Assembly: GCA_034439755.1 (NCBI GenBank)
Contig: JAWXAZ010000122.1
Location: forward strand, 2,117-66,116
Direction of reading: 5' to 3'
Length of the DNA: 64,000 nucleotides
Source of the DNA: a bacterium
GTDB taxonomy: Bacteria > Bacteroidota > Bacteroidia > UKL13-3
Shown here piece after piece: positions 782 to 64,000 of this stretch (position 1 is its first letter; each line of letters begins with the position of its first letter). The position numbers and the translations under genes are program-made. The notes under the pieces were generated by a model. That model was not told the DNA's origin, ran no database searches, and saw only the letters and a list, made by a program, of their open reading frames with translations.

Positions 782-2791
782 TTATTGAACCACAATTTTC
801 TGAACATGGCTAGATGAGCCAGAGGCTATTTTTAACAAATAGATTCCTGGATTTTGTCTAGCCATATTTATGTTTATTTGGTTGAGGCCTACCCTTGCTT
901 CTTCAAAATTTTGTTGCAGCAACAACTTTCCCTCCATAGAATAAAGGCTGGTTGCGATGGCATTGCTTTGAACCAATTGCACGTCTACTGTTAAGTTTTG
1001 TTGGTTTATAATTGGATTAGGATAACAAGAAACTTGTATGGTCTGAACCAATTTTTCTTGCGTGCCATTGATGTGATTTACGCGCGCATAGGCAGCACCA
1101 CCCGCATTAAAATAAGTACCACTTGCACCCGTTTCTAATTTGATGGCACGCACAGCATACTGGTAATTTCCGGTAACATAATTTTTATCGTGGTTGTATG
1201 TGGTGCCCGTTTCAGGCACATCATTGAGTCGGTAAAAAGTGTTGCTAAGCGTATCTACCAAATAAACGGCATAACCCAAACCAGGTTCAGAAACAGGCGA
1301 CCACAACAGTTTAACCACTTTATTTTCGCTGATGGCACTAAGGTTAGAAACCGCAGGTAAATTTTTCATGCGCAAGGTTGGATCGCCCATAAGGGCTATG
1401 TGCATTGAATTTTCTGATAAGTTAAATTGGCCAGAGAAATAGAAATTGGTATTGTTCTGGCTTATTTGAGTGCCTTTGCCGATGCGCTCTCCCAAGCCCA
1501 TGTGGTGCACATACCATTTGGGTATACCACCCCAAAAAGAAGCCAAACTTTTGGATGCAATGGGTGCCCGCAATAAATTATTTTGAACATCCCAATCGCC
1601 AAAAAAGCTACCGGCTAATATGGTAAATACATTTTCGAAACTATCGTTTACAAAACTTGTGGTGCTGCCAATGCCGTTGCAGTTTGTATAAGATCCGGCG
1701 CCACAACCATAACTCCAGAGGTAGGAGCCCTTTTTTTGAGCTGTAATATAATCGAGGGTATCGTAAGTTAGATTTGAACCCACCAAAGCGGCAAAATTTG
1801 CATAGCCCGTTGAGGCTAAATTTAGGGAGGCAAAATTATTATCTACCAAGGCACGTTCTTGCACCTTCCATACACCCGTTCTCCAAGCATGGTTTCTATC
1901 GAGATAAGCTGCTGTAAGTGCGGTATCGCTCTTTTTAAAAGCTGGCATATTAAATAAATCTACCCTTCCTACTTCTAATACGGCTTCGCTTGGGAGTTTG
2001 CTTTGATCAAACTTACCATCGCCTACCACATTATAATTTCTAGGTTGCGAACCTGTTTTACAATCCACCCAATCATCTGTAAGTCCGTTGCCCAAAATGC
2101 CATAAACCACATCGGCAGGCCAGGCGCCCGTGTGGTTTCCGCTTCCTTCCACATGGCCATCTGGTGGGGGTGTTTCTGAGTTAGAAGAATAATATCCAGA
2201 GTAAGGCACAGGAACATGACCCAATATAAACAAGCTGGCTGGCTTAATGAGGGCATTTTGATAAATGGCTTTCACCCTGTTGCGAACCGAATTAACCGCT
2301 TCTCCCCTACCTGCATAATCAATATACAACACATATCCTTCCTTGTATAAATCTGCTTGAAGTTGGTTAATTTGAGTGCTCAATGGCAAACGAAAATTGC
2401 TATCTATTAACAGGATAACGGCAGGATATTGTTTTGGTTCTGGAAAAGCATTTCCAGCATAAATATACCCCAAAGCCACATTGGTTGAACCTTGGCGTTT
2501 TACAATTTGATATTCGAACGCCTCTCCTTCTTTTACGGCAACATCTTTATATTGATTAAATGTACCCGCAATGCTGGCAATTGGCGCCGATCCCCAATTC
2601 TGAGTTTGTTGATTTAACCTTTTGTAAATATCATAATTGCCCGCAAAGTTTTCGTAAGGCCAAGTAAGCGTTATGCTGCCATCTGCATTTGCAGTGGCGC
2701 TTATTCTTATCACCTGCGTTTTGGCAATTTGAGCCATAGCGTGTATAGAAATTAGCAAACATATTAGCAGTAAATTATACCCCTTTTTCAT
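782..2791 (-). CDS. Secreted T9SS cargo protein, function unknown
   Basis: 669-aa ORF with signal peptide MKKGYNLLLICLLISIHAMAQ. The last ~80 aa (YPNPI...GIYLLKIASGSSSHVQKIVVQ) fit the T9SS type-A sorting domain pattern. The central domain was not identified. Confidence 0.6.
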   Translation of the reverse strand: MKKGYNLLLICLLISIHAMAQIAKTQVIRISATANADGSITLTWPYENFAGNYDIYKRLNQQTQNWGSAPIASIAGTFNQYKDVAVKEGEAFEYQIVKRQGSTNVALGYIYAGNAFPEPKQYPAVILLIDSNFRLPLSTQINQLQADLYKEGYVLYIDYAGRGEAVNSVRNRVKAIYQNALIKPASLFILGHVPVPYSGYYSSNSETPPPDGHVEGSGNHTGAWPADVVYGILGNGLTDDWVDCKTGSQPRNYNVVGDGKFDQSKLPSEAVLEVGRVDLFNMPAFKKSDTALTAAYLDRNHAWRTGVWKVQERALVDNNFASLNLASTGYANFAALVGSNLTYDTLDYITAQKKGSYLWSYGCGAGSYTNCNGIGSTTSFVNDSFENVFTILAGSFFGDWDVQNNLLRAPIASKSLASFWGGIPKWYVHHMGLGERIGKGTQISQNNTNFYFSGQFNLSENSMHIALMGDPTLRMKNLPAVSNLSAISENKVVKLLWSPVSEPGLGYAVYLVDTLSNTFYRLNDVPETGTTYNHDKNYVTGNYQYAVRAIKLETGASGTYFNAGGAAYARVNHINGTQEKLVQTIQVSCYPNPIINQQNLTVDVQLVQSNAIATSLYSMEGKLLLQQNFEEARVGLNQININMARQNPGIYLLKIASGSSSHVQKIVVQ

Positions 2792-3051
2792 ACTCTATTA
2801 TTTATTGGTTCAGACCGAATCAAATATATTAAAAAACGAATGGTAAGGAAAAAAGAAATAAGGGGTAAGCCAAAAACTCGGATTTTTACGGCGCAAAATA
2901 ATCTTAATAATATCTAAATATTTATAGTAATAGGCTTCCCATAACAGGCTGAAACCCTCTCTGGGCTTCAAAAATAAAAAAAACAGCGGCCAAACTGTAG
3001 CAAACTCTGGACAAGCTAAATAATGATGGAGAAATTTTATCTGTTTTAAGA

Positions 3052-3059
3052 TATATTTG
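3052..3059 (+). promoter_or_regulatory. Candidate Bacteroidota -7 promoter box (TATATTTG)
   Basis: Matches the TAnnTTTG consensus, 89 nt upstream of ATG 3148 in a 356-bp divergent intergenic region. Confidence 0.35.
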
Positions 3060-3147
3060 TTAGATTGAATTGGTGTGATTTCTTAGGAAGACCCACCATC
3101 TTGCTATATTAAAACTAAAAAAAATGTTGCTTCAAAACATCTAAATT

Positions 3148-6100
3148 ATGAATATGATGAAAAAACTACTGCTTGTCATTGCTCTATTTTCTCAATATTT
3201 TGCCTTTGCACAATTTCCCAATCACCTTAATGTTTCCTTGTTGCCTGCAACGCGTGGAAACATTTTGGATGTGGTAGATTTTAACAACGACACCTATGAG
3301 GATTTGGTTTATCAAAATGGCTTAACGGGCACCATTGATTTATACCAGAACAATTCTTCCTCGTTTCAAAAAGTGAATACTGCTTTTGGATTTCCGGTGA
3401 TAACGGGCAATGGAAACGGCACAGAGGGTGTTATCTCGTTTGATTATAACAACGATGGATACCAAGATTTGTTAATCATGCAATCTGGTGCAACTGGCTA
3501 TATGCGCTTGTTTAAAAACAATTGTGGCAGCAGTTTTACAGAGGTAAGCACGAGCATGAACATGCCTATAAATCCCAATATTACGGGGCAGTATATTACC
3601 AACGACCCCATTGTTGTGTTGAGCGATTATGATAAGGACAATGACATTGACATTGTGTTTGTGCGCTTTGCTTTGGGCGAATATAAAATTAGCGCGCTTA
3701 AGAATAATGGCAGTTCTTTTTTAGCGCCTATTGATATTATCTCGGGCTTTGGATCAAGCATTATTCCCATTATTGATTTCATAAATTACGACAATGATTT
3801 GGATGAGGATTTGTTGATTATTAAAAATACAGGGGTAAAACAATCATGTGAAATTTTGCTCTATGGCAACAATGGATCTGGCACCTTTAACTTAATATCG
3901 GGCACAGGACTTACCAATAGCAGTGCGGTAGGATTTGCCAATATTTCAGATTTAAATCAAGACGGATTTGCAGATATTTTATTAGGAACAAAAGACACGG
4001 TTCAGCCAGGATCACCGGTAAACATGGGCTTAAAGGTATTTAGAAACAACGGCGGCTTGGGTACCTTTACCGATATTACGGCAACCTATAATACACTTTC
4101 GACCACCAAAGGAGACTATTTTTTATCGCATATTTTCGACCTAGACAACGATGGTTTTAACGATGTACTTTGGGAAGTTAAACGCAATGATTCTACTTTT
4201 TCTACACCTGCCTTGATGCGCAACAATGGATTAAATGTTTTTTCAAATGAGCATTTAAACCTTATACCAAGTGCGGCAACCGATACCAATTCAAGCATGC
4301 GTTATGTTGTTTTTGATTATGACAACAATGGAACATTGGATATCTTTCAGCCAGGAGGCAGCAGTAATGCGCAACTGTTTAGCAACAGCAGTTCTGGCAA
4401 TAATTATTTAGCCATTACGCTTTATTCTTGTTCGGGTATGGCCGATCCAATTGGCGCAAGGGTATATGTGAAATCGGGCACCAAAAGAGTTTACACCACT
4501 TATACAGGGCAGGGAAATTCAACTGATGGCTTAGCAAAAAGCGAGAAAATTCACATGGGACTTGGGTCCAACTCTTTTATAGATTCACTGGTGGTGTATT
4601 GGCCAAATGGTAATGTTACGGTTCGAACCAATATTCTTGCCAACAACCATTATAAAATCATCAATGGCAACTGTAGAATTGCCGAACGTTTGGTTTTTGA
4701 TTTAGGGAACGACAGTATTTCGTATTGCAATGTTGACACGGCTATTTTCACGGCACCTAACGGCTACGCTAGATATTTGTGGAGCACTGGCGATACCACC
4801 ATTGGAACAAAAGTAACTCAAAGTGGTTGGTTATACTGCAATGTGTTTTTCTATGCAAATTGTACCTTAAGAGATAGTATCTATATTTCTATTGGGCAGG
4901 GAAGAATTGCACAAAATGATACCACCCTCCTTTTAGGACAAAGTTTAAATTTAGATGCATTGCCTAGATATGATTGCTCTTTATTTGGTTTGCCTGCTTA
5001 TAGAATTGTAAACCAGGGAGACAACCTAGGTGCAAGTTTAACCTATGTAAATTCGAGAAATGGACATCATTATTATAAATTTAATGCGGCAAGCGATTGG
5101 TCTACCGCGCAACGTGATGCATTGGCCTTAGGCGGACAATTGGTTGTAATAAACGACCAAGATGAAAATGACTTTATTGCCCAAGAACCTTCGCTAAACA
5201 ACACCAATTTATGGATAGGCTTATATAGAGAAAATAATCCAAACGAACCCTTTAAATGGGTTAATTGCGATGAATTAAACTATATCAATTGGTCGAATTT
5301 ATTTGCCTCGCCAAGTACCTTTCCTAATGAACAACATGTTTATTTTAGGGCCACAGGCTGCCCTGATGCTGGAACTTGGAAAAACACAGATGAGACACAA
5401 AGTAGTCCTGACCCTTGCGAATCGAATATTTTTGGATTGGTAGAATTTGATAACAGCAAGGCAACATCGTATTTATGGAATACAAGTGAAATAACACAAA
5501 GTATCAATGTTGCCCCAACTACAAGCAGTATTTATTTTGTGGAGGTAACTCAAAACAACAAGACTTGTTTTGGTTCCATAAATATAGAGATGCTTGATCC
5601 TAGTCAGCTCATATTGTTTGATTCGATAACAGATTGCACCGCAAATTCCATTCAAGTTACTGCCAATACAACAGGATGGCAATCTTATTTATGGAATACA
5701 AGCGATACTGCTAGAACCATACAAATAACACAAACCGGATGGTATACCATAACAGCGCTTTACGGCGGCAGTGTTGGTTCAGACAGTATTTATGTAAGCT
5801 TACCTAAAACAGGAATTTTAAGCCCAGACACCACAATTTGTGCGGGTTCTAATTTGTATATACGTGGACCAATTTTGCCATTTGTGGTGCAGCAAGCGCA
5901 TAGGCAAAACTTTCAATCGGGTATATTTCCGAATTACAGTTCTACTAGTAATTTTAGCTTTAATAGCACCAAAGTTTTGGGGCCATTTGCCAATGATTCT
6001 GTGACCTATTTGCTACCTTCTATTCCGGTACACGATTCTATTACGGTGAGTTTTGATTTGTATTTGCACGATACTTGGGAAGGAAATTGTGGTGCAGTTG

Positions 6101-9100: not shown

Positions 9101-10254
9101 GAAGTGGAACAAACTCAGTAGATGTTTTATGGGGCGCGTTTGGTTCAGGCAGTATAACGCTAAGCGACTCTAATAACACAACGGGATGTATAGGCAACGC
9201 AACATTGGCTAATGTATATATACAAACCTTGCCACAGCCAGTGGTGAATGGGGCAACCAGCGTTTGCGTAAACGGCATTTCGTCTTATAATACGCCACCG
9301 AGTTTGGGTAGAACGTATACTTGGGTGGTAACAGGTGGAACCATAGTTTCTGGTTTTGGAACGGCTGGCATTGATGTAAATTGGGGCAGTGTAGGAACCG
9401 GAACTGTTGTGGTTACAGATAGCATAGATGCAACGGGTTGTTATGGCGTTTCGGCTACTATTACGGTGAATATTCAGGCTAAACCAAGCACCTTTATTAG
9501 TGGTACAAATACCATTTGCGAATTGGGTATTGCCATGTATGGCACCATCAATAATTTAAACAAATTTTATGATTGGAATGTGTTAGGCGGCAATATTAAT
9601 TTTGGTCAGGGTACTTCTAATATTTCTGTAACATGGGCAAGTGCCGGTGTTGGATATGTGTATTTAACCGACTCGCTCATTGGGGCAAATTGTTCTGCAA
9701 GCACTTACTTGGGAGTTCAAGTAAATTCAATACCAAGTGCAGGCTTTAACTACGCTCAAACGGCAGGTGGTGTTAAGTTAACGCCAATAGATAACACGGT
9801 TAGCTGTAAATGGTATTTTGGCGATGGCGATTCTAGTTACACATTTTCGCCTTATCATGCTTATGCAAATAATGGCATATACACCGTTACCTTGCAAACT
9901 AGAAGCATATTTGGTTGCTTAAATGAAAGCTCAACCGATGTAAACATAAGTACGGTTGGCTTGTCACAAGAAGCCTTGGCGCATCACTTTAAATTTGTGG
10001 CGCAGCCAAATCCATTTACAGAACAAACTAAGCTAACACTAACTTTAAAAGAAAGTGCCGATATTAGTTTGGAAGTATTTGACATGAGTGGCAGACTGGT
10101 TCATACTTACACGCAAGGTCAGTTGCACTTGGCAGGCACATATGAGTTTGGGTTTAATTCTGCCGATTTCCAAACTAGCGGCGGCGTGTATTTGGTGAGG
10201 ATCAAAGTGAATGAAGACTACAGGCATTTGAGAATCATTGAGCTGGGCAGATAG
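3148..10254 (+). CDS. Giant multidomain T9SS-secreted adhesin-like protein (FG-GAP/UnbV, two C-type-lectin-like modules, nine Ig-like repeats, PKD, T9SS CTD)
   Basis: 2368-aa ORF with signal peptide. It has FG-GAP/VCBS-type D-x-D-x-DG repeats and an UnbV/ASPIC-like segment (nt ~3240-4640). Two lectin-like modules carry WIGL and paired Cys (nt ~5040-5455 and ~6930-7310). Y(L/R)WS(T/N)GDT motifs recur. A PKD signature WYFGDGDSS...YTVTL lies at nt ~9765-9950, and the C-terminal QPNPF...GGVYLVRIKV sorting domain at nt ~9990-10251. Confidence 0.85.
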   Translation: MNMMKKLLLVIALFSQYFAFAQFPNHLNVSLLPATRGNILDVVDFNNDTYEDLVYQNGLTGTIDLYQNNSSSFQKVNTAFGFPVITGNGNGTEGVISFDYNNDGYQDLLIMQSGATGYMRLFKNNCGSSFTEVSTSMNMPINPNITGQYITNDPIVVLSDYDKDNDIDIVFVRFALGEYKISALKNNGSSFLAPIDIISGFGSSIIPIIDFINYDNDLDEDLLIIKNTGVKQSCEILLYGNNGSGTFNLISGTGLTNSSAVGFANISDLNQDGFADILLGTKDTVQPGSPVNMGLKVFRNNGGLGTFTDITATYNTLSTTKGDYFLSHIFDLDNDGFNDVLWEVKRNDSTFSTPALMRNNGLNVFSNEHLNLIPSAATDTNSSMRYVVFDYDNNGTLDIFQPGGSSNAQLFSNSSSGNNYLAITLYSCSGMADPIGARVYVKSGTKRVYTTYTGQGNSTDGLAKSEKIHMGLGSNSFIDSLVVYWPNGNVTVRTNILANNHYKIINGNCRIAERLVFDLGNDSISYCNVDTAIFTAPNGYARYLWSTGDTTIGTKVTQSGWLYCNVFFYANCTLRDSIYISIGQGRIAQNDTTLLLGQSLNLDALPRYDCSLFGLPAYRIVNQGDNLGASLTYVNSRNGHHYYKFNAASDWSTAQRDALALGGQLVVINDQDENDFIAQEPSLNNTNLWIGLYRENNPNEPFKWVNCDELNYINWSNLFASPSTFPNEQHVYFRATGCPDAGTWKNTDETQSSPDPCESNIFGLVEFDNSKATSYLWNTSEITQSINVAPTTSSIYFVEVTQNNKTCFGSINIEMLDPSQLILFDSITDCTANSIQVTANTTGWQSYLWNTSDTARTIQITQTGWYTITALYGGSVGSDSIYVSLPKTGILSPDTTICAGSNLYIRGPILPFVVQQAHRQNFQSGIFPNYSSTSNFSFNSTKVLGPFANDSVTYLLPSIPVHDSITVSFDLYLHDTWEGNCGAVGPDRFKFYQGNSAVLNETFSNSPSCTQSYTNTGVAGNYPAFTGAAITGLPQRCHISGTTSKYTITKSFKHSAPSLVLSWLALLQDTSDNSSLCNESWSIDNVIVNYRVPTKVLWSTGDTSQNILFNATNASEMIWLRVPNGTDFCYDTITVNTYPGSLPLQLFAIDTLFECNVYSTILSMPPGHSKYRWSNGDTLESTNLYNEGWYSGYIENASGCASYDSVYYNVNHFSLNMTDTTICAGNTIKIESSLNNNATDFPGPANVAYIPGQILAGYTYLGAYRGHHYYQATVSGSWESSVQKAFAVGGYLACINDSLEQNFISNLTDSNVWIGLFKSRSGYYKWMNNDTLTYKHWGTSQPSISPKDYAYIMGSNCVQKGKWATHVNTDITAIDPCDKNAFGLLEITPTQYDYLWSTAATSSTILISPTADQIVNLTITRTKNNVASTCSAGEVNVNMVAAPIVTGKTENCLNSTSAYTTVSKTGRSYFWFVTGGTITSGQGTNRVNVNWNQVGAGTVVLRDSILATGCVIYSDTLRINTVQLFAPTITGDSTVCQGQLIFYSIPLDTNYTRTWFISGGTIVSGQGTDSIKVNWTGSGNVNVSVLVRHKPTNCNAPLASFPVTISVSPNPVMTGLDTACVNTVNLYTIPFNVGRKYVWTVAGGSIVSGQNTDSLRVLWGIGGTGSVQAMDSILASGCYAITSLKVVTISSLLVPIIVGSSAVCENSIVSYSTTGNIGRTYRWTITGGNIVSGLGTAAINVVWGTPGTGTLQVLDSINATGCKSVSNNFNVSIDSLPQPIINGSNAKCNGEITFYSIPSKAGHSYNWTVTLGNILSGQGTSTIQVIWPIIGSGTVSVIDSIVATGCSGTAPLFTVMVNAKPNPLISGIQSICVGTTASYTTPNNLGRTYTWLVNNGTIVSGQGSSTISVLWNVVGSGFLNVTDSVNLTGCKSVTSNYNVSVVAVPSPIITGKDTVCELSLQTYSVPFNAGRSYKWNVIGGSIVGGSGTNSVDVLWGAFGSGSITLSDSNNTTGCIGNATLANVYIQTLPQPVVNGATSVCVNGISSYNTPPSLGRTYTWVVTGGTIVSGFGTAGIDVNWGSVGTGTVVVTDSIDATGCYGVSATITVNIQAKPSTFISGTNTICELGIAMYGTINNLNKFYDWNVLGGNINFGQGTSNISVTWASAGVGYVYLTDSLIGANCSASTYLGVQVNSIPSAGFNYAQTAGGVKLTPIDNTVSCKWYFGDGDSSYTFSPYHAYANNGIYTVTLQTRSIFGCLNESSTDVNISTVGLSQEALAHHFKFVAQPNPFTEQTKLTLTLKESADISLEVFDMSGRLVHTYTQGQLHLAGTYEFGFNSADFQTSGGVYLVRIKVNEDYRHLRIIELGR
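7471..9732 (+). repeat. Nine tandem ~84-aa (about 252-nt) coding repeats inside the giant gene
   Basis: Each unit follows P-x-I/V-x-G-x5-C-x6-Y-x9-Y-x-W-x-V-x-GG-x-I-x-SGQGT-x3-V-x-W-x3-G-x-G-x-V-x5-N/A-x-GC. 2262 nt divided by 9 gives about 251 nt per unit. Confidence 0.85.
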
Positions 10255-11754: not shown

Positions 11755-11860
11755 ATGCTTTGCAAAAAGCAAAATAAATCTCTGTTTCAATTACAATCAT
11801 GCTTTGCAAAAAGCAAAATAAATCTTTGTTTCAATTACAATTATGCTTTACAAAAAGTAA
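11755..11860. repeat. 44-bp tandem repeat, about 2.4 copies, each with a small hairpin
   Basis: ATGCTTTGCAAAAAGCAAAATAAATCT(C/T)TGTTTCAATTACAAT(C/T) at 11755-11798 and 11799-11842, then a partial third copy. Each unit contains TGCTTT-GCAA-AAAGCA. Confidence 0.8.
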
Positions 11861-51223: not shown

Positions 51224-51254
51224 GTAGACTTTTTCCCACGCATTAAGTGCTTAG

Positions 51255-52354: not shown

Positions 52355-52408
52355 TAAAATTAGGCTCAACCAACTACTTTTGAAATTGGCGCTATCCTGA
52401 TAAAAAAT

Positions 52409-52451
52409 AAAAAAAACAGGCTGATTCTTAATTGAATCAGCCTGTTTTTTT
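52409..52451. terminator. Bidirectional rho-independent terminator
   Basis: Perfect 12-bp stem ACAGGCTGATTC/GAATCAGCCTGT with loop TTAATT, flanked by an A-run and a T-run. Confidence 0.8.
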
Positions 52452-52470
52452 ACGCCTAAACTACCAGAAA

Positions 52471-52914
52471 CTAAAACCTAAACATAGGTGCGCCCCAAGG
52501 AATTCTAGATAGAACCAACACCAAAGCAATGCCAAAAAAGATTAAACTACGCTTGTGCTTGTCGGCATCAGAATAAGCCTTCTTTACCCTAATACGCCCA
52601 ATTTGAATTAGCGCCACAGATATAATCATCATCAGTGGATGCTCAATTAACATAGCGCGAATAGCCGAATCTTTCATAGCCACAGCCATATTAGCCATTG
52701 CATGTTGAATATTCGGACTCACAAACAACAGAATTAAACCAATGAGCAATTGCGAATGCGCCGCAGATAACAAAAGCGTACCAGCCAAATTATCTGGCTT
52801 CGCAAATGGCGTGCCCCCACTTAAGCCACGTGCCGCCTTAAAAATTGCATAAAGCGCCGCAGCCAAAAAAGCCCAACGCAGTAAATTGTGAATAGAAAGT
52901 AATAAATCGTACAT
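52471..52914 (-). CDS. Integral membrane protein (hypothetical)
   Basis: 147 aa with four hydrophobic helices. Confidence 0.55.
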   Translation of the reverse strand: MYDLLLSIHNLLRWAFLAAALYAIFKAARGLSGGTPFAKPDNLAGTLLLSAAHSQLLIGLILLFVSPNIQHAMANMAVAMKDSAIRAMLIEHPLMMIISVALIQIGRIRVKKAYSDADKHKRSLIFFGIALVLVLSRIPWGAPMFRF

Positions 52915-52984
52915 AATGTTTTTTTTTCAAAACTAACTATTCACTAACTTATGTCAAGTTATTTTTTAAAACTACCCCACAAAC

Positions 52985-55039
52985 ATGTCCAGTTTTTGGC
53001 AACAAATGCCTTTTGTGCGCATCCTCCTCCCTTTTATTTTGGGCATTATTGCCTGCAGTAAATTTGCATATAACGGGCTGAACCAATCCATTTTACTAGC
53101 ACTCACAGCCGCCGCCTACCTCCTATTCCATTACCTAAGCAAACATTCATTCAGAGAATATTTGCACGGCATTTGGTTTAGCCTACTCTATTTTTTACTC
53201 GGAATTTTTATCCTTTGCCTCCACCAAGAGAAAGAAAAACTACAACACTTCTCCCAACATAAATCCCAAGCAATTGCGGTTCAAATTACAGAAAAAACTA
53301 CCCAAACAGAAAAAGGTTGGAAGGCCGAAGCACTTGTATTATATGGCATCGACAGCCTTTTAAACACCAAACCCCTGAGAGGAAAAATAGTGTTATACGC
53401 CCAAACTACACCCGGCGACACCCAACCAAGCTATGGCGACCAATTATTAATTAAATCTGGTTTTCAAGAAATATCTCCCAACAAAAATCCCGGTGCCTTT
53501 AACTACCAATTATACCTCCAAAGAAAAGGCATTTTCTACGCAACATACCTGCGCAAAAATCAATACCTAAAACTGCAATCAAACCAAGGAAATACCATCC
53601 TAAAAAAAGTCTATGCCTTTCAATATTTTATTCACCAAGTACTGCAAAATAACCTCCAAAAACCCGGCGAAATTGGCATTGCAGAAGCTTTGCTTTATGG
53701 GTACGACAAAGACATTGAAGACGATATAACCGACGCTTATAGCAAAACCGGAACCTTGCATGTACTGGCAGTAAGCGGCATGCATGTGGGACTCATTTTC
53801 ATGATTCTATCTTGGCTCTTAAAACCCCTAGAAAAACTTAAACGCAGCAAAAAACTCATTCCACTTTTGCAAGTTTTAGGCATTTGGATCTACGCCCTTA
53901 TTTGCGGCTTCTCGCCCTCCATTTTGCGCGCATGTGTAATGTTCACTTTTGTAATTATGGGCAAACAAATTGGCCGCAACAGCAACCCATTCAACAGCCT
54001 CAGCGCCTCGGCATTTCTGCTCTTACTCACCAACCCCAACCTAATTTACAATGTAGGATTTCAACTAAGTTATGCTGCCGTAGGTGGCATTTTAGGCTTC
54101 TACCCATACCTCTATCACCTGTTCAATTTTAAACGATCTATTTTCGACGAAATATGGAAAATATTGGCCGTATCACTCGCCGCACAAACCCTCACCCTCC
54201 CGTTAAGCATCTTCTATTTTCACCAAATTCCCCTCTATTTTTTGCTGGCCAATCTGCTCATCATTCCCCTCACCAGCATTATTATTTATGCCGGCATAAT
54301 CCTCCTAATTATATCGCCATTTCCTTTCCTCGCAAGCCTCCTTGGCAAGCTCATCGCCTGGCTCATTCAACTCACCAACCACATTGCCGTTTTTATAGCA
54401 GACCTACCCTATTCTTACCTCGATCAACTTAATTGGGATACACTGCAACTCCTAGCCTATTACCTCATTTGTATTGGCCTGATCCAATTCCTTTTCCGCA
54501 GAGATATATTTGCCCTAAAAGCCATCTTAGCCATTTTTATATTGCTACAAATACAAAAAGTTTATGTGCAAATTCACTTACAAAAACAATTTGCACTCAC
54601 CATTTATTCCCTGCCAAAAAACTTAGCCATTCAATATCAACATGGCAACCAAGCACAGCTTTGGCAACGAAGCTCAGACAAGCAACAAAAAAACTTTAAG
54701 AACCAAATACAACCCAATCTCTACCTCAAAAACATTGTCTCGGTAGAAACTGAAACCCTAGATACCTTAAACTACCTTTTTGCACCACAACCCGGATTAA
54801 AAATATGCATCCTTCAAAACCGCGGAATGCCCGCAAAGGAAGCGCTCAACATAGTGTTAATATGCGGCAAACATTATGTAAACATTGAAAAATTAATCTC
54901 TTTAAACAGGGTACAAAAAGTGGTTATAAATGGCGATGTGCCCAAAAAGAAATCGGCTGCCATCAAAAAAATTCTGCAAAAACACAAGATACCTTGTCAC
55001 GATGTTACCGAAAATGGTGCCTTTGAAGTATCATTGTAG
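52985..55039 (+). CDS. comEC: ComEC/Rec2-family DNA internalisation channel protein
   Basis: 684 aa and polytopic. Competence-domain motif GTLHVLAVSGMHVG. No C-terminal metallo-beta-lactamase domain is evident. Confidence 0.8.
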   Translation: MSSFWQQMPFVRILLPFILGIIACSKFAYNGLNQSILLALTAAAYLLFHYLSKHSFREYLHGIWFSLLYFLLGIFILCLHQEKEKLQHFSQHKSQAIAVQITEKTTQTEKGWKAEALVLYGIDSLLNTKPLRGKIVLYAQTTPGDTQPSYGDQLLIKSGFQEISPNKNPGAFNYQLYLQRKGIFYATYLRKNQYLKLQSNQGNTILKKVYAFQYFIHQVLQNNLQKPGEIGIAEALLYGYDKDIEDDITDAYSKTGTLHVLAVSGMHVGLIFMILSWLLKPLEKLKRSKKLIPLLQVLGIWIYALICGFSPSILRACVMFTFVIMGKQIGRNSNPFNSLSASAFLLLLTNPNLIYNVGFQLSYAAVGGILGFYPYLYHLFNFKRSIFDEIWKILAVSLAAQTLTLPLSIFYFHQIPLYFLLANLLIIPLTSIIIYAGIILLIISPFPFLASLLGKLIAWLIQLTNHIAVFIADLPYSYLDQLNWDTLQLLAYYLICIGLIQFLFRRDIFALKAILAIFILLQIQKVYVQIHLQKQFALTIYSLPKNLAIQYQHGNQAQLWQRSSDKQQKNFKNQIQPNLYLKNIVSVETETLDTLNYLFAPQPGLKICILQNRGMPAKEALNIVLICGKHYVNIEKLISLNRVQKVVINGDVPKKKSAAIKKILQKHKIPCHDVTENGAFEVSL

Positions 55040-57511: not shown

Positions 57512-58414
57512 ATGACAAAAATACTCATTTCGGGCGGTTCTGGTTTGCTTGGTTCAAACCTAACAAAAATTCTTAAAAATCAAGGTCACCAAGTTTCGTG
57601 GCTTAGCAGGAATCCAAAAACAGGAGATGTTCCGCAGTTTTTCTGGAATCCACAAACCCAAGAAATAGACCCAAATGCCTTGCAAGAAATAGACACCATA
57701 ATTCACCTTGCGGGAGCAGGAGTGGCAGATAAACGCTGGACAGACAGCTATAAAGATCTCATTCTACAAAGCAGAATTGAGGGCACGCAACTGTTGTTTA
57801 ATACACTCAAAAACAAGCCCAACAAAGTGCAAACTTTTATTGGCGCTTCGGCCGTTGGTATTTATGGTACCCACCCTGTTGCACCAACCAACGAAGACGC
57901 GCCCTTGGCAAATAATTTCTTGGCAGAAGTTTGCAAACAATGGGAAAACGAAACCCAAAAGATTGCTAGCCTGGGTATCAGAACCGCCATTGTGCGCATT
58001 GGCATTGTGCTGAGCCAAGAAGGCGGGTTCATCAAAGAAATTGGCCAACTGGCTAAATATTGGTTGGCAGCACCCCTGGGCAATGGCAATATGCTTACCC
58101 CTTGGATTCACATCAACGACCTTTCCAACATTTTTATTCACCTCATGCAACACCCCAATCTTTCGGGTGTTTTCAATGGCGTGGCACCCAATCCTGCCAC
58201 CAACAAAGAACTTACAAAAGCCATTTGTCTGGCCATGCACAAGCCCTTTTTCCTGCCTCCTGTGCCCGCTTTTGCCCTCAAAATTATAGTAGGAGAAATA
58301 GCGCCCATGCTGCTTTCCAACCAAGATATCTCCTGCAAAAAAATCCTCCAAACTGGCTTTCATTTTCAATTTACAAACCACAAATTGGCCATCCAAAATC
58401 TCTTGCAAGCCTAA
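57512..58414 (+). CDS. TIGR01777-type NAD-dependent epimerase/dehydratase family protein (SDR39U1-like)
   Basis: ILISGGSGLLGSNL Rossmann motif. 300 aa with a DUF1731-like C-terminus. Confidence 0.8.
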   Translation: MTKILISGGSGLLGSNLTKILKNQGHQVSWLSRNPKTGDVPQFFWNPQTQEIDPNALQEIDTIIHLAGAGVADKRWTDSYKDLILQSRIEGTQLLFNTLKNKPNKVQTFIGASAVGIYGTHPVAPTNEDAPLANNFLAEVCKQWENETQKIASLGIRTAIVRIGIVLSQEGGFIKEIGQLAKYWLAAPLGNGNMLTPWIHINDLSNIFIHLMQHPNLSGVFNGVAPNPATNKELTKAICLAMHKPFFLPPVPAFALKIIVGEIAPMLLSNQDISCKKILQTGFHFQFTNHKLAIQNLLQA

Positions 58415-58515
58415 AAAATGATAGACCATTGCAACCATTTCCCTATTTTTGCCTTCTATCAAGCATCGCTTCTGGCGGTCTGAACCAAGGAATTTATAAC
58501 AAGAAATAATTACGA

Positions 58516-59277
58516 ATGAAGAAAATACTTGCCTCATTAAGCTTAATAATCCTTACCACTGCAGTCTCTTTTGCCCAGAAAAAAGAGGAAAAACTCTATC
58601 AACCCGCAGTTATTGTGGAACTTTTTTCTTCGGAAGGTTGCGCTAGCTGCCCTTATGCAGACGAATTCTTAAAAGAGCTCATTAATATAAGCGACAGTGC
58701 TGGCACCCCCGTTTATGTAATAGATTACCACGTGGTAATTTGGAATAAATCGGGCTGGGTAGACCCCTTCTCCGATTCGCTCTATAGCCTTCGTCAGCAA
58801 GAATACATGCACAAGAAACAGCTAGCCGCCATGTACACCCCAATGGTCTTTGTAAACGGCGGCGACAAAGACTTTGCGGGTGGCGATAAAAAAGGAATTG
58901 GCATGGCCATACAAAATTTCCTGAGCGCACCTTCTATGCATTTTATGCGCAGCGGCGTTACAGGTATAGAAAATGAAGACAGCGTAATGATAGCCTACCA
59001 ATTTTGGGGCAATCCAGATTCGCTAGAAATGCGCGTGGCTTTGGTTCAGAAAGAAATAAATAGCCAAGTAAAAGGAGGCGAAAATTCTGGACTCATCCTT
59101 CACCACCACAATGTTGTGCGCGCGCTGCAAACGCAAAAATTAGGCAAGTCGGATGGCCACTTTAAATTCCCCATCGATAGAAATTTAAACTTAGACAATT
59201 ACCGTTTGGTGCTGTTTCTACAACATAAAAGAACCTGGAAAATTGTTGCGTCCGACCAATTAACGTTTAAGCCATAA
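58516..59277 (+). CDS. DUF1223-domain protein
   Basis: Signal peptide, then the VVELFSSEGCASCPYAD hallmark motif. Confidence 0.8.
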   Translation: MKKILASLSLIILTTAVSFAQKKEEKLYQPAVIVELFSSEGCASCPYADEFLKELINISDSAGTPVYVIDYHVVIWNKSGWVDPFSDSLYSLRQQEYMHKKQLAAMYTPMVFVNGGDKDFAGGDKKGIGMAIQNFLSAPSMHFMRSGVTGIENEDSVMIAYQFWGNPDSLEMRVALVQKEINSQVKGGENSGLILHHHNVVRALQTQKLGKSDGHFKFPIDRNLNLDNYRLVLFLQHKRTWKIVASDQLTFKP

Positions 59278-59422: not shown

Positions 59423-61987
59423 TTATTTGCCATTAACCTCTGCCAATACCTTGGCATAAAAATCTACATAAGCGGCTTCTTTAAACACCGCCTTTTCCAT
59501 ACTTTTTGCCTCAAGATTCTTTAACAAATTGAGCATTTGCTTGCCTTTTTCCCTATCGCTGTTTAACAAGTAGAAATGGGCCAAATGCTGCAAACCCACA
59601 AGCAAAACTGCGGCATTCTGCTGCTTCAAATAAGCACCATACGCACTTAAAATACTGTTGCGGTAAAAGCCATATTTCCCCAATATACCAGCAAAAAAAT
59701 CATTCTTATCCGTCACCGCATGCGCTGCATACAACCAAGCAATATTGCGCTGCATCAATGCCGTTTTATGCTGCTCCATCTCCCTACATTTCTCCAAACA
59801 CAAAGGCAAATCAGATATGGCCAAAGCTTGCAAACTCGTAGATTTAACCTTATAAGAAATATCGTTTAACCCTTGCAACAAAATGCCCCTGCTATAAGCC
59901 GAATCGCCCATGTAGGCAATTAAATAAATGGCATCATCGCGCACACCAGGTTGCAAGCCATGCAAAGCCAAATCTTCTATGCGGCGCGCAAACTTAGGGT
60001 ATAAAGTATCCTGCTTTTCAACCATAGAAATTCCCGCCATTTGGTAAAAATATTCGGGCTGATCCAAACAATAGGCGACAGCCTTTTCTATTAAAAATCG
60101 CTCCTTGCTATAGTCCAACTCACTTATGGCTTGAACCGACCGTATTTTCGACAAATAATTATCCGATAACTTTAATTGGTTCAGCCAGAAATTGGGCGAT
60201 TTTTCTTCCTTAATAACTGCTGGTAAATTGCCCGTGGGGTCTATCCAATACCCCAATAATTTTAACTCCCCTTCGAGCGAATCGGGTGCCGCAATTTCTA
60301 CTATATTTTCCCTATGATTTAAAACAATTGGCAATTTATACACAAACACAGAGCCGCCAGCTTGCTCCAACACCAACATCATTTCGCTGCTTAAATGAAA
60401 TACCTTAAAACCCGAATCTTGCACTTGGTTCAGCCCAAATTTAAACCCCCCATTTAATGCTTTGCCTAAGTATTTTATATCCAAAATGGGGTGACCAAAT
60501 CCATCGAACCACTCCTTAAAAAACTGCTGTAAATCCTTGCCACTGGCCTCTTCCATGGCATGCCTTAAATGATCCATATCGGTGTATTGAAACGCATTTT
60601 TACTCAAGTAAATTTGCATGCCTTTAAAGAAAGCTGTATCGCCCACAGTGTAGCGCAGGTAATGCAAAATCCAGCTACCCTTTTGGTAACTCACCACATC
60701 AAAAACCTCATCGGGCTCGGTATAATAATTCCTAATTGGACTAATTTTATACTTGCCCTTATTCCTTAAATAAGCATTCCAATTATTGGCAAAATCCCTG
60801 TCGGCATAAACCTTTCCCCTGCTTGCCTCATCATACATATATTCGCCATAGGTAGCAAAACTTTCGTTTAAAGGCAATTGACTCCAACTTCTACAGGTAA
60901 CCAAATTGCCAAACCAATGGTGAAACAACTCGTGGGCAATAATGTCTTGCTGTGGATTGTCTAAATGCTCTGTATTGGTATGTTGAACGCCCTCATTGTG
61001 CAACACCGCCGAGGTATTTTCCATGGCCCCACTCACAAAATCCCTGCACACAATTTGCGAAAATTTTTCCCATGGATAATCCACGCCTGTTAAGCGCGAA
61101 AAAGTTTCCATCATCTTGGGTGTTTCTCCAAAAATAGTTTGCGCATAAGGTGCATAAGCAGGCTCCAAATAATAGCTCACTTCCTTGTTGCGCCAATAGT
61201 CCTTGGTAACCACAAAATTGCCAATAGCAATCATGGTCAAATACGGTGCATGAGGCTTTAATTGTTGCCAATGATCAACGCGTTTGCCGTTTTTTAACAG
61301 CTTAGCATCCACCAACAATCCATTGCTTAAACTCACATCCGCAGTATCAATTGTTAAGTAAATATCTTGTGTATGTTTTTCGTTGGGCACATCTATGGTT
61401 GGAAACCAGCACGAATTATAATTGGTCTCGCCCTGCGACCAAATTTGCCTAGGTTTGTTTGGATCTGTGCCCAATGGGTTTATAAAATACAAACCACGAG
61501 AATCTGTTATGGCTCTGCCACCCTTGCTTTCTAACTCATTGGGTTTGGCTACGTACTGAACCAACACAGAAAAGGTATCACTTGCGCCATAGGATTTGCT
61601 TAAGGTAACAAGCAACTTGCTTTTATCATAAGCATAATTCAAATTAAGAGTGTCTTTTTTTACAATCTGTGCTACCCTTAAAATTGCAAATCCCTTAGCA
61701 TCTAAAGCAACCACATTGCTTTCTTGTGCATATTGCCGCATGCGCAAAACCGCAGTGCCGTATACCCATTGCTTCTGATAATCAAAAGATAAGTCCAATT
61801 TTGTGTGAACCAAATCGTGCACCCTGGCTTCCATAGGTTGATAAGAAACCACCCCTTTACCATGCTGCGGCTTAACCACCACATCGGGCAAAATAATTTT
61901 TTCCATGGCGGTTGTTGGGTTTTTATTTATTTTGCATCCCATCATCCCAATCAGCAGGAAGAAACTCAATAATTGATAAATTCTCAT
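59423..61987 (-). CDS. M1-family zinc aminopeptidase (aminopeptidase N-like) lipoprotein
   Basis: GAMEN exopeptidase motif, HELFHHWFGNLVT...NESFATY (HExxH-x18-E), and lipoprotein signal LLIGMMGC. ATG 61987 preferred. Confidence 0.88.
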   Translation of the reverse strand: MRIYQLLSFFLLIGMMGCKINKNPTTAMEKIILPDVVVKPQHGKGVVSYQPMEARVHDLVHTKLDLSFDYQKQWVYGTAVLRMRQYAQESNVVALDAKGFAILRVAQIVKKDTLNLNYAYDKSKLLVTLSKSYGASDTFSVLVQYVAKPNELESKGGRAITDSRGLYFINPLGTDPNKPRQIWSQGETNYNSCWFPTIDVPNEKHTQDIYLTIDTADVSLSNGLLVDAKLLKNGKRVDHWQQLKPHAPYLTMIAIGNFVVTKDYWRNKEVSYYLEPAYAPYAQTIFGETPKMMETFSRLTGVDYPWEKFSQIVCRDFVSGAMENTSAVLHNEGVQHTNTEHLDNPQQDIIAHELFHHWFGNLVTCRSWSQLPLNESFATYGEYMYDEASRGKVYADRDFANNWNAYLRNKGKYKISPIRNYYTEPDEVFDVVSYQKGSWILHYLRYTVGDTAFFKGMQIYLSKNAFQYTDMDHLRHAMEEASGKDLQQFFKEWFDGFGHPILDIKYLGKALNGGFKFGLNQVQDSGFKVFHLSSEMMLVLEQAGGSVFVYKLPIVLNHRENIVEIAAPDSLEGELKLLGYWIDPTGNLPAVIKEEKSPNFWLNQLKLSDNYLSKIRSVQAISELDYSKERFLIEKAVAYCLDQPEYFYQMAGISMVEKQDTLYPKFARRIEDLALHGLQPGVRDDAIYLIAYMGDSAYSRGILLQGLNDISYKVKSTSLQALAISDLPLCLEKCREMEQHKTALMQRNIAWLYAAHAVTDKNDFFAGILGKYGFYRNSILSAYGAYLKQQNAAVLLVGLQHLAHFYLLNSDREKGKQMLNLLKNLEAKSMEKAVFKEAAYVDFYAKVLAEVNGK

Positions 61988-62021
61988 AGCGTGTATTAGG
62001 GGTGCAATAAAACGAATTTCC

Positions 62022-62519
62022 ATGTTAAATATTCAAGTAAACAACCAAGATTTTATTTTTGATAGCATAACAGGCAATGCCATGCTAAATGGCAAGCCCA
62101 TAAATGCCGATGTGGTTAAACTTGCGCCCAACAAATATCATTTAATTATAGACCGCCAAAGCTATACCGTTGAGCTGCTAGAAAAAACCGAAAATGGCAA
62201 AGGCATGCACATTGCGGTGAATGGGGTAAAACAGATAGTCGCCATCAAAGATAAATACGACAATTTATTGCATCAACTGGGCATGGATAAAATGATGAGC
62301 AACAAGAACATCAACCTAAAAGCGCCCATGCCGGGCTTGGTGTTGCGCATCAATGTAGCAGTTGGCGATACCGTTAAAAAAGGCGATGTATTGCTGGTAC
62401 TCGAAGCCATGAAAATGGAAAATGCCATTAAAGCAGATGGCGAAGGCAAGGTTAAACGCATTGCCGTTAGCACCAAACAAGCGGTAGAAAAAAACACCCT
62501 ACTAATTGAAATGGAATAA
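62022..62519 (+). CDS. Biotin/lipoyl-attachment (biotin carboxyl carrier-like) protein
   Basis: C-terminal VLEAMKMEN biotinylation motif in a biotinyl-domain fold. 165 aa. Confidence 0.8.
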   Translation: MLNIQVNNQDFIFDSITGNAMLNGKPINADVVKLAPNKYHLIIDRQSYTVELLEKTENGKGMHIAVNGVKQIVAIKDKYDNLLHQLGMDKMMSNKNINLKAPMPGLVLRINVAVGDTVKKGDVLLVLEAMKMENAIKADGEGKVKRIAVSTKQAVEKNTLLIEME

Positions 62520-63482
62520 GCCCAAAGGCTTTATTTTTTCTATCAAGGCAGCGTTAAATTTTATAACACCCGATTGTGCTAAATGATGCGCATCGTAAAA
62601 ATCGGTGCTATCGTTTAGGGCTAAATTTTCGTAATTAAAATTTATATACAGGCCATAACTAGCAAACAAACTATCGGTATAAGCATAATTTTTATACGCC
62701 TCAAAAAAACCTTTACTTACAGGAGCTTGCACCAATAAAACCGGAATATTTTTCTGCTTTAACAATTCTATAGACTCCCCAAAAGCCGCCACCTGCTTGC
62801 CTTTTAGCCGCCACAGCTTATCCCCTAACTTAACAGATTCTACATCCAACGGCATAGTTTCAGCCATCAAATACCTTGGTTGGGCCCTAAAATCTTTCTG
62901 TACATAAGCCCCTAAAACATAAGTGTCCTCACCTACTTTTGCCGCTTCCCTAAAAGCCAAATCGCCATAAAAAACTTTCCGCATAAAACCATATAAAAAG
63001 GCATTGTAAACCACCACATGATTTACGGCCAAAGCCTGCCAAAACACATGGCCATAATGTGCTGTATTAGAAATTATATCCACCGCACTCTCTACCCCAT
63101 CCATCTCAAAATTCTCTGGAAACACCTCATAAATTACCAGTTTCGGTCTGAACCGATCTACGTATTCTTGCAATAAATAAGTGGTTTGCAAGGGCGTTTG
63201 GTTGCTCGACCCCAAATTAAAGGAACGCATGCCAGCAGCAGCAAAAATGCGGGTATCAAAGCCTCTATACGTATGCGAGGATCCTAAAAATAATACCTCA
63301 ACTTGGGTGCTGGTATCGGCCTCCAATAACCTGCTGTGCATAAAACCTGTTAAACCTTGTTTATAACGCAAATTCTTGTGGTATTTGCCATTTAAGGCAT
63401 TGCCCCAAATGGTTAAAAGTACACTATAAGTAATTAAAGCAAATAGTAAAAACAAGCCAAATTGTATCAAAAACTTACGCAT
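62502..63482 (-). CDS. Hypothetical membrane-anchored protein downstream of MBOAT (possible DltD/AlgJ-like acyl-transfer partner)
   Basis: An N-terminal TM segment, then a soluble domain. The assignment rests only on gene order after an MBOAT gene. Confidence 0.4.
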   Translation of the reverse strand: MRKFLIQFGLFLLFALITYSVLLTIWGNALNGKYHKNLRYKQGLTGFMHSRLLEADTSTQVEVLFLGSSHTYRGFDTRIFAAAGMRSFNLGSSNQTPLQTTYLLQEYVDRFRPKLVIYEVFPENFEMDGVESAVDIISNTAHYGHVFWQALAVNHVVVYNAFLYGFMRKVFYGDLAFREAAKVGEDTYVLGAYVQKDFRAQPRYLMAETMPLDVESVKLGDKLWRLKGKQVAAFGESIELLKQKNIPVLLVQAPVSKGFFEAYKNYAYTDSLFASYGLYINFNYENLALNDSTDFYDAHHLAQSGVIKFNAALIEKIKPLGLFHFN

Positions 63483-63501
63483 CTTATAATAAATCCCACG
63501 C

Positions 63502-64000
63502 TTAAAATTGAAAATAAATAAAAGGTGAAGTCTCAACGGTCATATACATGCCTATTAAAAAAACAAGCATGCCGTAAAAGCCCCAGCGAAGTGGTTTAGG
63601 GTATGCTTGCATAAAATATTGCAAAGCAAATTGCGCCTGTCTTCCCTGCCATTCTACCCAAAGAAAAAACACCAACAAAGGCAAAATATACGCGTTTAAT
63701 TTTGGTTCAGCCAGTACATTAGAAAACAAGGAACTATGGCATATATGTTTTATAAAAGAAAAAGCCTCACCTAAATTCTCTGCCCTAAAAAATATCCATA
63801 GAAAGCTCATCAATAAAAAGGTTGAAAGAATGCTTACGCCCTCCCAAATGGCCAAGCGCCAAGCAACATGCCTGCTGCCACCTACTAGGTTATACACCCT
63901 TTTTGCCATGCCAAATCTTGTATAAACATTTATGTAAAATAGGTAAAAAAGTGCGTTCAACAATCCCCAAACCACAAAAGTCCACGAGGCTCCATGCCAA
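63502..64000 (-). CDS. MBOAT-family O-acyltransferase, C-terminal part (5' end outside window)
   Basis: The frame stays open to the window edge (..WHGASWTFVVWGLLNALF..). FFRAENLGEAFSF and a polytopic profile are typical of AlgI/DltB-type MBOAT C-termini. Confidence 0.75.
   Translation of the reverse strand, partial: WHGASWTFVVWGLLNALFYLFYINVYTRFGMAKRVYNLVGGSRHVAWRLAIWEGVSILSTFLLMSFLWIFFRAENLGEAFSFIKHICHSSLFSNVLAEPKLNAYILPLLVFFLWVEWQGRQAQFALQYFMQAYPKPLRWGFYGMLVFLIGMYMTVETSPFIYFQF

Follow-up and report, generated by a model that had tools for sequence, protein, structure and literature searches.

A hyper-abundant nine-base word with lineage-specific dialects in uncultured Bacteroidota: a candidate DNA uptake sequence

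Introduction

What keeps a short word of 9–13 bases at some 30–60 times its expected frequency in the genome of an uncultured member of the Bacteroidota? The question is raised by a 64-kb stretch of contig JAWXAZ010000122.1 (assembly GCA_034439755.1), hereafter the window, along which the nine-base word CTGAACCAA and its complement TTGGTTCAG are scattered. The window is otherwise unremarkable Bacteroidota chromosomal DNA, with several C-terminal sorting domains of the type IX secretion system (T9SS), dnaG, dprA, comEC and other housekeeping genes. The initial annotation of this stretch took the word for a genome-wide signal of the kind used in DNA uptake or self-recognition. Here, its abundance, its placement in genes and its distribution among relatives are described, and the explanations that could account for it are weighed.

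Abundance and boundaries of the word

The window contains exactly 26 copies (0.41 per kb), with TTGGTTCAG read 14 times on the forward strand and 12 times on the reverse strand. The initial annotation had given at least 26 copies and no strand bias at 14 versus 12; both counts were reproduced, as were all coordinates except that of the copy at 13614, which had been placed at 13615. None of 100 dinucleotide-preserving shuffles reached this number (mean 0.76, maximum 3). Markov models of order 0–4 predicted 0.5–1.2 copies, or 0.4 with the motif masked, close to the chance level of about 0.5 first estimated; higher orders approached the observed count only because the motif itself trains the model in a 64-kb sample. 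The word ranks first among the canonical 9-mers of the window. The remaining frequent k-mers were rejected as dispersed motifs, their source being two local tandem arrays.

Eight copies extend to GGTCTGAACCAA and seven to GGCTGAACCAA, while a 19-mer is identical at 24712–24730 and 42315–42333 and 16 nucleotides of it recur at 58473–58488, all as annotated. Upstream of the word, positions −4 to −1 read (C/T)-G-G-(G/T) with 0.45–0.92 bits, and no information lies outside positions −4 to +9. Beyond −4 the distal flanks are 26% identical, which is the random level, and the copies are therefore not fragments of a longer repeat; this disposes of the conserved mobile unit that the initial annotation had named as a possible refutation. 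Elements of the repetitive extragenic palindrome (REP) or miniature inverted-repeat transposable element (MITE) type are extragenic and conserve a unit longer than the core; here, 21 of the 26 copies are coding and the flanks are random. Variants of the 9-mer with one mismatch are enriched twofold in the window (33 observed, 15.6 expected), as would be expected of a graded binding preference. The C-to-T neighbours are not depleted, with two copies of TTGAACCAA (1.6 expected), three of CTAAACCAA (1.7) and one of CTGAACTAA (0.2). An Rfam scan of the window returned three tRNAs only, so that the motif is not an RNA family, and a literature search for the literal 9-mer returned primer matches only.

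Orientation is neutral. The seven-base core GAACCAA is divided 25:25 between the strands of the window, copies of both orientations are interleaved along it without a switch point, and by gene sense the division is 12:9. GC skew in the window tracks gene orientation and defines no replichore. The same balance holds in every lineage (fragments of 7–64 kb), including splits of 26:23 and 12:12 in other samples. Strong co-orientation with replication, the hallmark of Chi and of the FtsK-orienting polar sequences (KOPS), was seen neither in the window nor in the fragments of relatives.

Constraint on DNA

The constraint acts on DNA and is not a peptide, codon or mobile-repeat effect. By simple open reading frame (ORF) calls, 21 copies are coding and five intergenic, one more than the four first reported. 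The coding copies use four frames: TTG-GTT-CAG (Leu-Val-Gln, LVQ) nine times, rather than the roughly ten of the initial annotation, and, in the numbers given there, CTG-AAC-CAA (Leu-Asn-Gln, LNQ) six times, GCT-GAA-CCA (Ala-Glu-Pro, AEP) three times and xTT-GGT-TCA (x-Gly-Ser) three times. The sole unused frame of CTGAACCAA holds a TGA stop.

Where these tripeptides occur, they are mostly written with the motif: LVQ is spelt TTGGTTCAG in 9 of 12 instances, LNQ is spelt CTGAACCAA in 6 of 9, and AEP carries the motif in 3 of 4. Codon usage predicts such a spelling for about 2% of LVQ and likewise of LNQ, since CTG accounts for 7% of Leu and CAG for 20% of Gln codons. When synonymous codons were shuffled with all proteins unchanged, 1.4 copies remained on average and 5 at most, against the 21 observed; a shuffle of codon order left 0.5. 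Together with the four frames, the rare codons and the non-coding copies, this bears out the DNA-level constraint that had been claimed. The proteins are touched as well, LVQ and LNQ being about twofold over-represented. In alignments of DprA and of the M1 peptidase with their homologs, the motif tripeptides fall at variable columns as lineage-specific replacements; one site in the peptidase reads GLNQ in the window versus EVNQ or DVKQ in the nearest relatives.

Relatives and dialects

All relatives found are metagenome-assembled genomes (MAGs) labelled Bacteroidia or Bacteroidota, and their sample names suggest a freshwater habitat. They include a sister species (loci L022 and L002; DprA 82% and DnaG 89% identical to the window), and further loci come from GCA_021740845.1 (L038 and L041), GCA_040403785.1 (L034) and Bacteroidetes bacterium B1(2017) (L040). 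The word is genome-wide, as the initial annotation had proposed, and lineage-wide as well: independent contigs, some of the same species and some of its sister, carry it at 0.4–0.8 per kb. In the sister species CTGAACCAA stands at 0.40–0.79 per kb (0.42 in L002) and is the top 9-mer of the longer contigs.

Comparison across the clade gave a bipartite motif, tttCGGT-YY-GAACCAAa, in which the window and the sister species have CT at YY. The unit first described was thus real but too short, the full one being CGGT-YY-GAACCAA. The dinucleotide before GAACCAA differs between lineages, as follows (copies observed, with expected numbers in brackets):

Window, 64 kb: CT 26 (0.8), TT 2, TC 3
Sister species (L022 and L002), 28 kb: CT 12 (0.5), TC 5, TT 4
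GCA_021740845.1 (L038 and L041), 43.7 kb: TT 33 (2.2), CT 3, TC 4
L037, 21 kb: TT 7, TC 6, CT 5
Bacteroidetes bacterium B1(2017) (L040), 21 kb: TT 6, CT 5
GCA_040403785.1 (L034), 21 kb: TC 5 (0.2)
Nine outgroup loci, 181 kb: CT 1 (2.6), TT 4 (3.6), TC 0 (1.8), no enrichment

The outgroups have a G+C content similar to that of the window. A scan of JGI metagenomes with DnaG returned relatives at no more than 59% identity, all without the motif, which serve as negative controls. Relatives at 70–76% identity lack the word itself as a frequent 9-mer but carry the motif in other spellings.

In GCA_021740845.1, the 33 copies with TT are the word TTGAACCAA, with GGTTTGAACCAA present 14 times and a consensus of aaTTTCGGTTTGAACCAAa. 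The TC form of L034 reads GGTTCGAACCAA, and the TC word GGTTCGAACC forms a perfect palindrome. Neither CTGAACCAA nor GGTCTGAACC is palindromic, and a perfect palindrome of the kind known from the cyanobacterial highly iterated palindrome 1 (HIP1) occurs only in this TC dialect of the relatives. Two overlapping inverted motif copies also form perfect 14-bp palindromes, TTGGTTCGAACCAA, at the following sites:

L034, 16308–16321
L037, 20514–20527
L040, 3665–3678
L041, 981–994 and 17775–17788

A likeness of GGTTCGAACC to the tRNA T-arm/B-box consensus was considered and set aside as probably coincidental; the motif favours neither strand, and the likeness is absent from the window dialect.

Deeper relatives (DprA 58–65% identical) hold weaker or possibly different forms, namely TGAACCCAA, TTGAACCTA and an excess of TTGAACC, all in small samples. 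TGAACCCAA occurs five times in 13.7 kb of L043 and three times in 6.9 kb of L032 and may be a further dialect; in L044, TTGAACCTA occurs six times and 19 of 39 GAACC have TT on the 5′ side, again a possible dialect. An apparent alternative motif in L032 and L033, CCAATAACTCA, was traced to a tandem repeat that precedes dprA. Immediately ahead of this gene in the two loci (L032 988–1040, L033 33–75; DprA of this relative 73% identical) lie 3–4 copies of a 14-bp repeat, CCAATAACTCATAA.

Copies in the window and their orthologous sites

The 26 copies are listed below by position, with the strand on which CTGAACCAA reads and the longer spelling where one was recorded.

1043–1051, plus, tGGTCTGAACCAA: in a T9SS C-terminal-domain protein gene (782–2791, minus), TTG GTT CAG, LVQ
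2805–2813, minus, cGGTCTGAACCAA: intergenic, with divergent genes on either side, 14 bp past the start of the 782–2791 (minus) gene; no hairpin
5774–5782, minus: in a gene for a 2368-residue PKD/FG-GAP/T9SS protein, xTT GGT TCA, VGS; perfect in L022, where the DNA is about 69% identical
9140–9148, minus: in the same PKD/FG-GAP/T9SS gene, FGS; conserved in L022
13614–13622, plus: in dprA, LVQ; conserved in L022; relatives have LIQ or LLE at this column
14064–14072, plus: in dprA, LVQ; the orthologous site is CTTGAACCAA in L022, CCTGAACCAA in L041 and CGTGAACCAA in L042
16293–16330, inverted pair of CTGAACCAA, at 16296 on the plus and 16319 on the minus strand: between the convergent genes Usp (15409–16290, plus) and DUF4842 (16412–18520, minus)
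19450–19458, minus, cGGTCTGAACCAA: in a DUF4114/DUF4842 gene (18718–20742, minus), CTG AAC CAA, LNQ; TTGAACCAA in L022 and L041
20289–20297, plus, tGGTCTGAACCAA: in the same gene (18718–20742, minus), FGS; palindromic GGTTCGAACCAA at the orthologous site of L022
24713–24721, minus, tttGGCGGTCTGAACCAAa: in a GNAT gene (24398–24853, plus), LVQ; the L041 ortholog has CGGTTTGAACCAA, a dialect switch
25493–25501, plus: in an MFS transporter gene (24854–26074, minus), LVQ; TGTTTTGAACCAA at the orthologous site of L034
32960–32968, plus: in a glycosyltransferase-9 gene (32258–33226, plus), LNQ; also CTGAACCAA at the orthologous site of L001
33994–34002, minus: in an AlaDH/PNT-like gene (33304–34506, minus), LNQ; absent at the orthologous site of L001
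34384–34392, plus: in the same AlaDH/PNT-like gene, LVQ; CTGTACGAT in the L001 ortholog
35090–35098, minus: in dnaG (34512–36440, minus), GCT GAA CCA, AEP; CTGAACCCA in L001, absent in L002
37170–37178, minus: intergenic, 60 bp downstream of an ORF (36747–37109, plus); no hairpin; L002 has CTGAATTAA
41753–41761, minus, tGGCTGAACCAA: in an MFS gene (40560–41801, minus), AEP
42324–42332, plus, tttGGCGGTCTGAACCAAa: in a cyclic nucleotide (cNMP)-binding regulator gene (41847–42410, minus), LVQ
53078–53086, plus, cGGGCTGAACCAA: in comEC, LNQ; CGGTCTGAACCAA at the orthologous site of L037
58480–58488, plus, tGGCGGTCTGAACCAA: intergenic, flanked by an epimerase gene (57512–58414, plus) and a DUF1223 gene (58516–59277, plus); CGGTTTGAACCAA in L037; no hairpin
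59041–59049, minus: in the DUF1223 gene, LVQ; L038 has CTTTTTGAACCAAAGCC versus CTTTCTGAACCAAAGCC in the window, a single T/C difference
60176–60184, minus, ctGGCTGAACCAA: in the M1 peptidase gene (59423–62023, minus), LNQ; 17 of 17 nucleotides identical in L036 and L037
60425–60433, minus: in the M1 peptidase gene, LNQ; absent in L036 and L037; the GLNQ site described above
61556–61564, plus: in the M1 peptidase gene, LVQ; CT in L036 and L037 but TTGAACCAA in L038
63702–63710, minus, ctGGCTGAACCAA: in an ORF (63502–63975, minus), AEP

Three alignable sites of the window are perfect in the sister species within DNA that is about 70% identical, and other orthologous sites there hold the near-motifs CTTGAACCAA or GGTTCGAACCAA. 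Between the window and GCA_021740845.1, about one third of alignable sites keep GAACCAA and about two thirds are not shared; point mutation continually adds and removes copies. Where the core is kept, most sites differ in dialect: CT in the window faces TT in GCA_021740845.1 in the GNAT gene (24713), the DUF4842 gene (19450), the DUF1223 gene (59041) and the M1 peptidase gene (61556). The occurrence of this CT/TT difference at many orthologous sites means that the same base changed in concert at independent sites.

Variation within the sister species could be viewed in nine metagenome contigs covering the dprA region (L022–L030; 5.7-kb alignment), in which none of the 29 variable columns falls in a motif copy. 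The four-gamete test fails for 20 of 36 pairs of informative sites, for which either recombination or chimeric consensus assemblies could account.

The inverted pair at 16296 and 16319 folds into a hairpin (ΔG −21.6 kcal/mol, z −4.1) that lacks a U-tract, and a distinct canonical terminator hairpin follows it at about 16340–16375. An inverted pair in the TT dialect, likewise between convergent genes, is present in L038 (ΔG −22.7, z −7.4). Of the five intergenic copies in the window, the remaining three (2805, 37170 and 58480) do not fold.

The longest stretch of the window free of the motif spans 10.7 kb (42333–53077) and has a lower G+C content (0.36–0.37), with fragmented ORFs at 43.8–47.8 kb. 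From about 43.8 to 51.0 kb, relatives give scattered short matches only, and this part ends beside a tRNA-Asn gene (51254–51328); in the relative L038, a phage-type integrase occupies the same PfkB/tRNA junction. The stretch is likely to be accessory DNA, a variable island. Its segment at 43800–51250 includes an FG-GAP fragment (44606–45223) and a gene for a 935-residue BNR/T9SS protein.

The word as a candidate uptake sequence

Our preferred reading, at roughly even odds, is that the motif serves in DNA uptake or self-recognition and that biased uptake together with recombination keeps it in place. The properties that point to such a sequence are the hyper-abundance, orientation neutrality, rewritten codons and residues, enriched near-matches, dialects, concerted switch, turnover and hairpin pairs described above, from which we infer DNA uptake to be the selective agent; the motif-free, largely non-syntenic stretch is suggestive in the same sense. 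Two genes connected with transformation are present intact in the window, as annotated, and both carry the motif:

13377–14480, minus: dprA, competence/recombination-mediator gene (Pfam DNA_processg_A, 1.3e-67), two motif copies
52985–55039, plus: comEC, DNA import channel (Pfam Competence, 5e-66, and DUF4131), one motif copy

Natural transformation of Bacteroidota uses ComEC, DprA, ComF and RecA together with four proteins of unknown function (PMC8459023), and Riemerella columbina prefers its own DNA, for which no explanatory motif was found (PMC7965970).

In mechanistic terms, a component of the transformation machinery would preferentially bind the word, and conspecific fragments carrying it would more often be imported and recombined. 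Mutations that create or improve a copy would then spread through the population by molecular drive, and copies would build up where they are tolerated: in frames that permit the word, at protein positions free to vary and in hairpins between genes. If the receptor came to prefer C over T at the second variable position and the existing sites followed, species-specific dialects would result. More tentatively, and at somewhat less than an even chance, this clade of uncultured, probably freshwater Bacteroidota may have evolved an uptake or self-recognition system independently, the first outside the Proteobacteria, with a bipartite near-palindromic signal and species-specific dialects whose sites, in the hundreds, switched together. 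Its receptor would be unrelated to the Neisseria minor pilin ComP, because Bacteroidota transformation uses distinct machinery.

Several points weigh against an uptake sequence. Only dprA and comEC were seen in the 64-kb window, and both are near-universal, as the initial annotation had itself cautioned. The near-palindromic build in relatives (GGTTC/GAACC, perfect in TTGGTTCGAACCAA) is more typical of dimeric binders or of targets of type II restriction-modification. All densities derive from samples of 7–64 kb and not from whole genomes. The share of intergenic copies (5 of 26) is close to the non-coding fraction of 14%, and the apparent depletion in accessory DNA, a trait of uptake sequences, comes from a single region chosen after the fact. 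The initial annotation is supported on the DNA-level constraint, the neutral orientation and the genome-wide occurrence, and its reading as an uptake signal is partly supported. Only 2 of 26 copies lie in a hairpin pair, versus about half in known uptake sequences. The phylum also offers no precedent: A-rich words were all that a k-mer survey of Riemerella and Flavobacterium johnsoniae turned up (PMC7965970), a 2025 survey still counts just two families, both proteobacterial, with uptake sequences (bioRxiv 10.1101/2025.10.24.684340), and our literature search returned no paper linking uptake sequences to Bacteroidetes or Bacteroidota.

Alternative explanations

An unlikely alternative is an abundant sequence-specific DNA-binding protein unrelated to uptake, whether chromosome-organising, nucleoid-associated or marking self DNA for defence or repair, with selection at each site and a co-evolving specificity. 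The bipartite, near-palindromic CGGT-YY-GAACC and the palindromic GGTTCGAACC and 14-bp TTGGTTCGAACCAA sites are typical of dimeric binders; neutral orientation fits too, and dialects with a concerted switch could reflect co-evolution with any protein. However, a position-specific function sits poorly with the roughly two thirds of sites that are not shared, and the left half is weak in the window dialect (0.45–0.9 bits), making the site effectively asymmetric. Moreover, we know of no chromosome-organising site (parS, matS, Noc or SlmA) that occurs at 0.4–1 per kb or that fills genes with rewritten codons and amino acids.

Less probable still is a HIP1-like element, for which a methyltransferase or mismatch repair of the very-short-patch type biases repair towards the word and the copies have no function of their own. 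The palindromic TC dialect does contain TTCGAA with a CpG, a C-to-T transition at this CpG turns TCGAACCAA into TTGAACCAA, and the step from TT to CT is a transition as well; highly iterated palindromes of cyanobacteria also have dialect-like variants. Patch repair, however, moves counts only from single-mismatch neighbours, each expected at about 0.1–1.7 copies, and cannot give a roughly 60-fold excess of a 9–13-mer. It also predicts depleted neighbours, and the C-to-T neighbours of the word are not depleted. The window dialect is non-palindromic, and in the 64-kb window, a small sample, neither a methyltransferase nor a vsr gene was seen.

It is very unlikely that the motif is a recombination hotspot of the Chi kind or a polar sequence of the KOPS kind, recognised by RecBCD/AddAB or FtsK. 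Such words are over-represented and species-specific and, in the case of Chi, lie in coding DNA, and dialects could arise as RecC or AddB co-evolves with the word. The known sites of both kinds measure 5–8 bp and are about 75–90% co-oriented with replication, whereas no sample here shows an orientation bias (14:12, 25:25, 26:23 and 12:12) and the two orientations are interleaved; inverted hairpin pairs have no role in this model. Finally, the idea that there is no signal, and that the word stems from codon or peptide usage, from dispersal of a mobile repeat or from chance, can be dismissed for practical purposes: the TT dialect does draw on common codons (TTG, CAA), and LVQ and LNQ are about twofold over-represented, but the idea is refuted by the synonymous (1.4 vs 21) and codon-order (0.5) shuffles, the rare codons of the CT dialect, the five non-coding copies, the random flanks, the lack of any excess in outgroups and the absence of a shuffle with 26 copies among 100.

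Other features of the window

Two tandem arrays were recorded. About 47 copies of an 11-bp unit, TTTTAGTTGAG, make up a 536-bp array (21782–22317) that fills the whole gap between convergent GSCFA and endonuclease III genes; an independent Logan assembly of this species (L021) contains the array too. A 630-bp array (23579–24208) upstream of the GNAT gene consists of 26 copies of a 24-bp unit, GTAGTTTGCAAGACACTATACAAT, with an 85% match; the ORFs at 23556–23888 and 23897–24193 inside it are probably spurious. Smaller intergenic repeats are a 52-bp unit in three copies with a 98% match (43905–44062) and a 44-bp unit in 2.3 copies (11755–11857). At 37709–39240, a HipB-like helix-turn-helix (HTH) gene followed by a HipA toxin gene forms a toxin–antitoxin pair, within a segment that lacks the motif and has no synteny with the relative L001.

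The flanks of dprA are alike in most loci of the clade (window 14490–21791, L022, L034 and L040–L043), with PNP_UDP_1, Usp, DUF4842/DUF4114 and GSCFA genes. Between one and three lipoprotein-like DUF4842/DUF4114 genes lie near dprA, the number of DUF4842 paralogs varying between species.

Significance

The pattern described here is otherwise known only from the uptake sequences of Neisseria and Haemophilus relatives. If the word is indeed an uptake sequence, it would be the third independent case and the first in a new phylum, which would put molecular drive by biased uptake to the test as a general route. The preference for self DNA in Bacteroidota transformation, so far unexplained (PMC7965970), would gain an explanation at the sequence level. 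The dialects form a graded series in which orthologous sites switch from T to C, a natural experiment in which a receptor could be sought through co-variation of protein and dialect. In practice, the word could mark core versus foreign DNA in MAGs and improve the transformation of related isolates. Were it unrelated to uptake, it would still be an undescribed, hyper-abundant genomic signal in need of explanation. The dialects and the concerted switching at orthologous sites extend the original finding and strengthen its interest.

Comparison with known systems

Chi (RecBCD/AddAB) and KOPS (FtsK) are likewise over-represented, species-specific short words in core DNA; unlike the present motif, they are strongly biased in orientation with replication. 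HIP1 of cyanobacteria (GCGATCGC) is also hyper-abundant, at about 1 per kb, occurs in coding DNA and has lineage variants, and its true palindrome is matched in build in some relatives here (GGTTCGAACC, TTGGTTCGAACCAA). It differs in that the window form is asymmetric, the invariant part being a half-site joined to a lineage-specific dinucleotide, and in that no methyltransferase link was seen in the 64-kb window.

Within the Bacteroidota, Riemerella columbina shows that transformation can tell self from foreign DNA with unusual machinery (PMC7965970, PMC8459023). Only A-rich low-complexity words were found there (PMC7965970), and the present clade is another, uncultured lineage.

The uptake signal sequences (USS) of the Pasteurellaceae (AAGTGCGGT; Apl type ACAAGCGGT) share with the motif a 9-mer core with weaker flank preferences, a mostly coding location that shapes tripeptides, enriched one-off variants and two or more dialects per family; the left block CGGT even resembles the GCGGT end of the USS. 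Core and phylum are unrelated. USS flanks are AT-rich helical-phase tracts, while the flank here is a short T-run with CGGT.

The DNA uptake sequences (DUS) of the Neisseriaceae (GCCGTCTGAA, 12-mer ATGCCGTCTGAA), bound by ComP, are likewise non-palindromic words at about 0.4–1 per kb in both orientations, are tolerated in selected frames and form gene-end hairpins from inverted pairs. About half of DUS copies lie in terminators (bioRxiv 10.1101/2025.10.24.684340), compared with the 2 of 26 found as a pair here. Further differences are the phylum, Bacteroidota with its T9SS C-terminal domains, and the bipartite, near-palindromic build of the motif. The window dialect shares GTCTGAA with DUS, and GCGGTCTGAA differs from GCCGTCTGAA by one mismatch. 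This likeness is confined to the CT dialect and is lost in the more widespread TT dialect (CGGTTTGAACCAA), and is thus most likely coincidental, as the initial annotation had suspected. A further parallel lies in the organisation of the dialects, which in DUS share the invariant core CTG (PMC3630211) and here share the invariant core GAACCAA.

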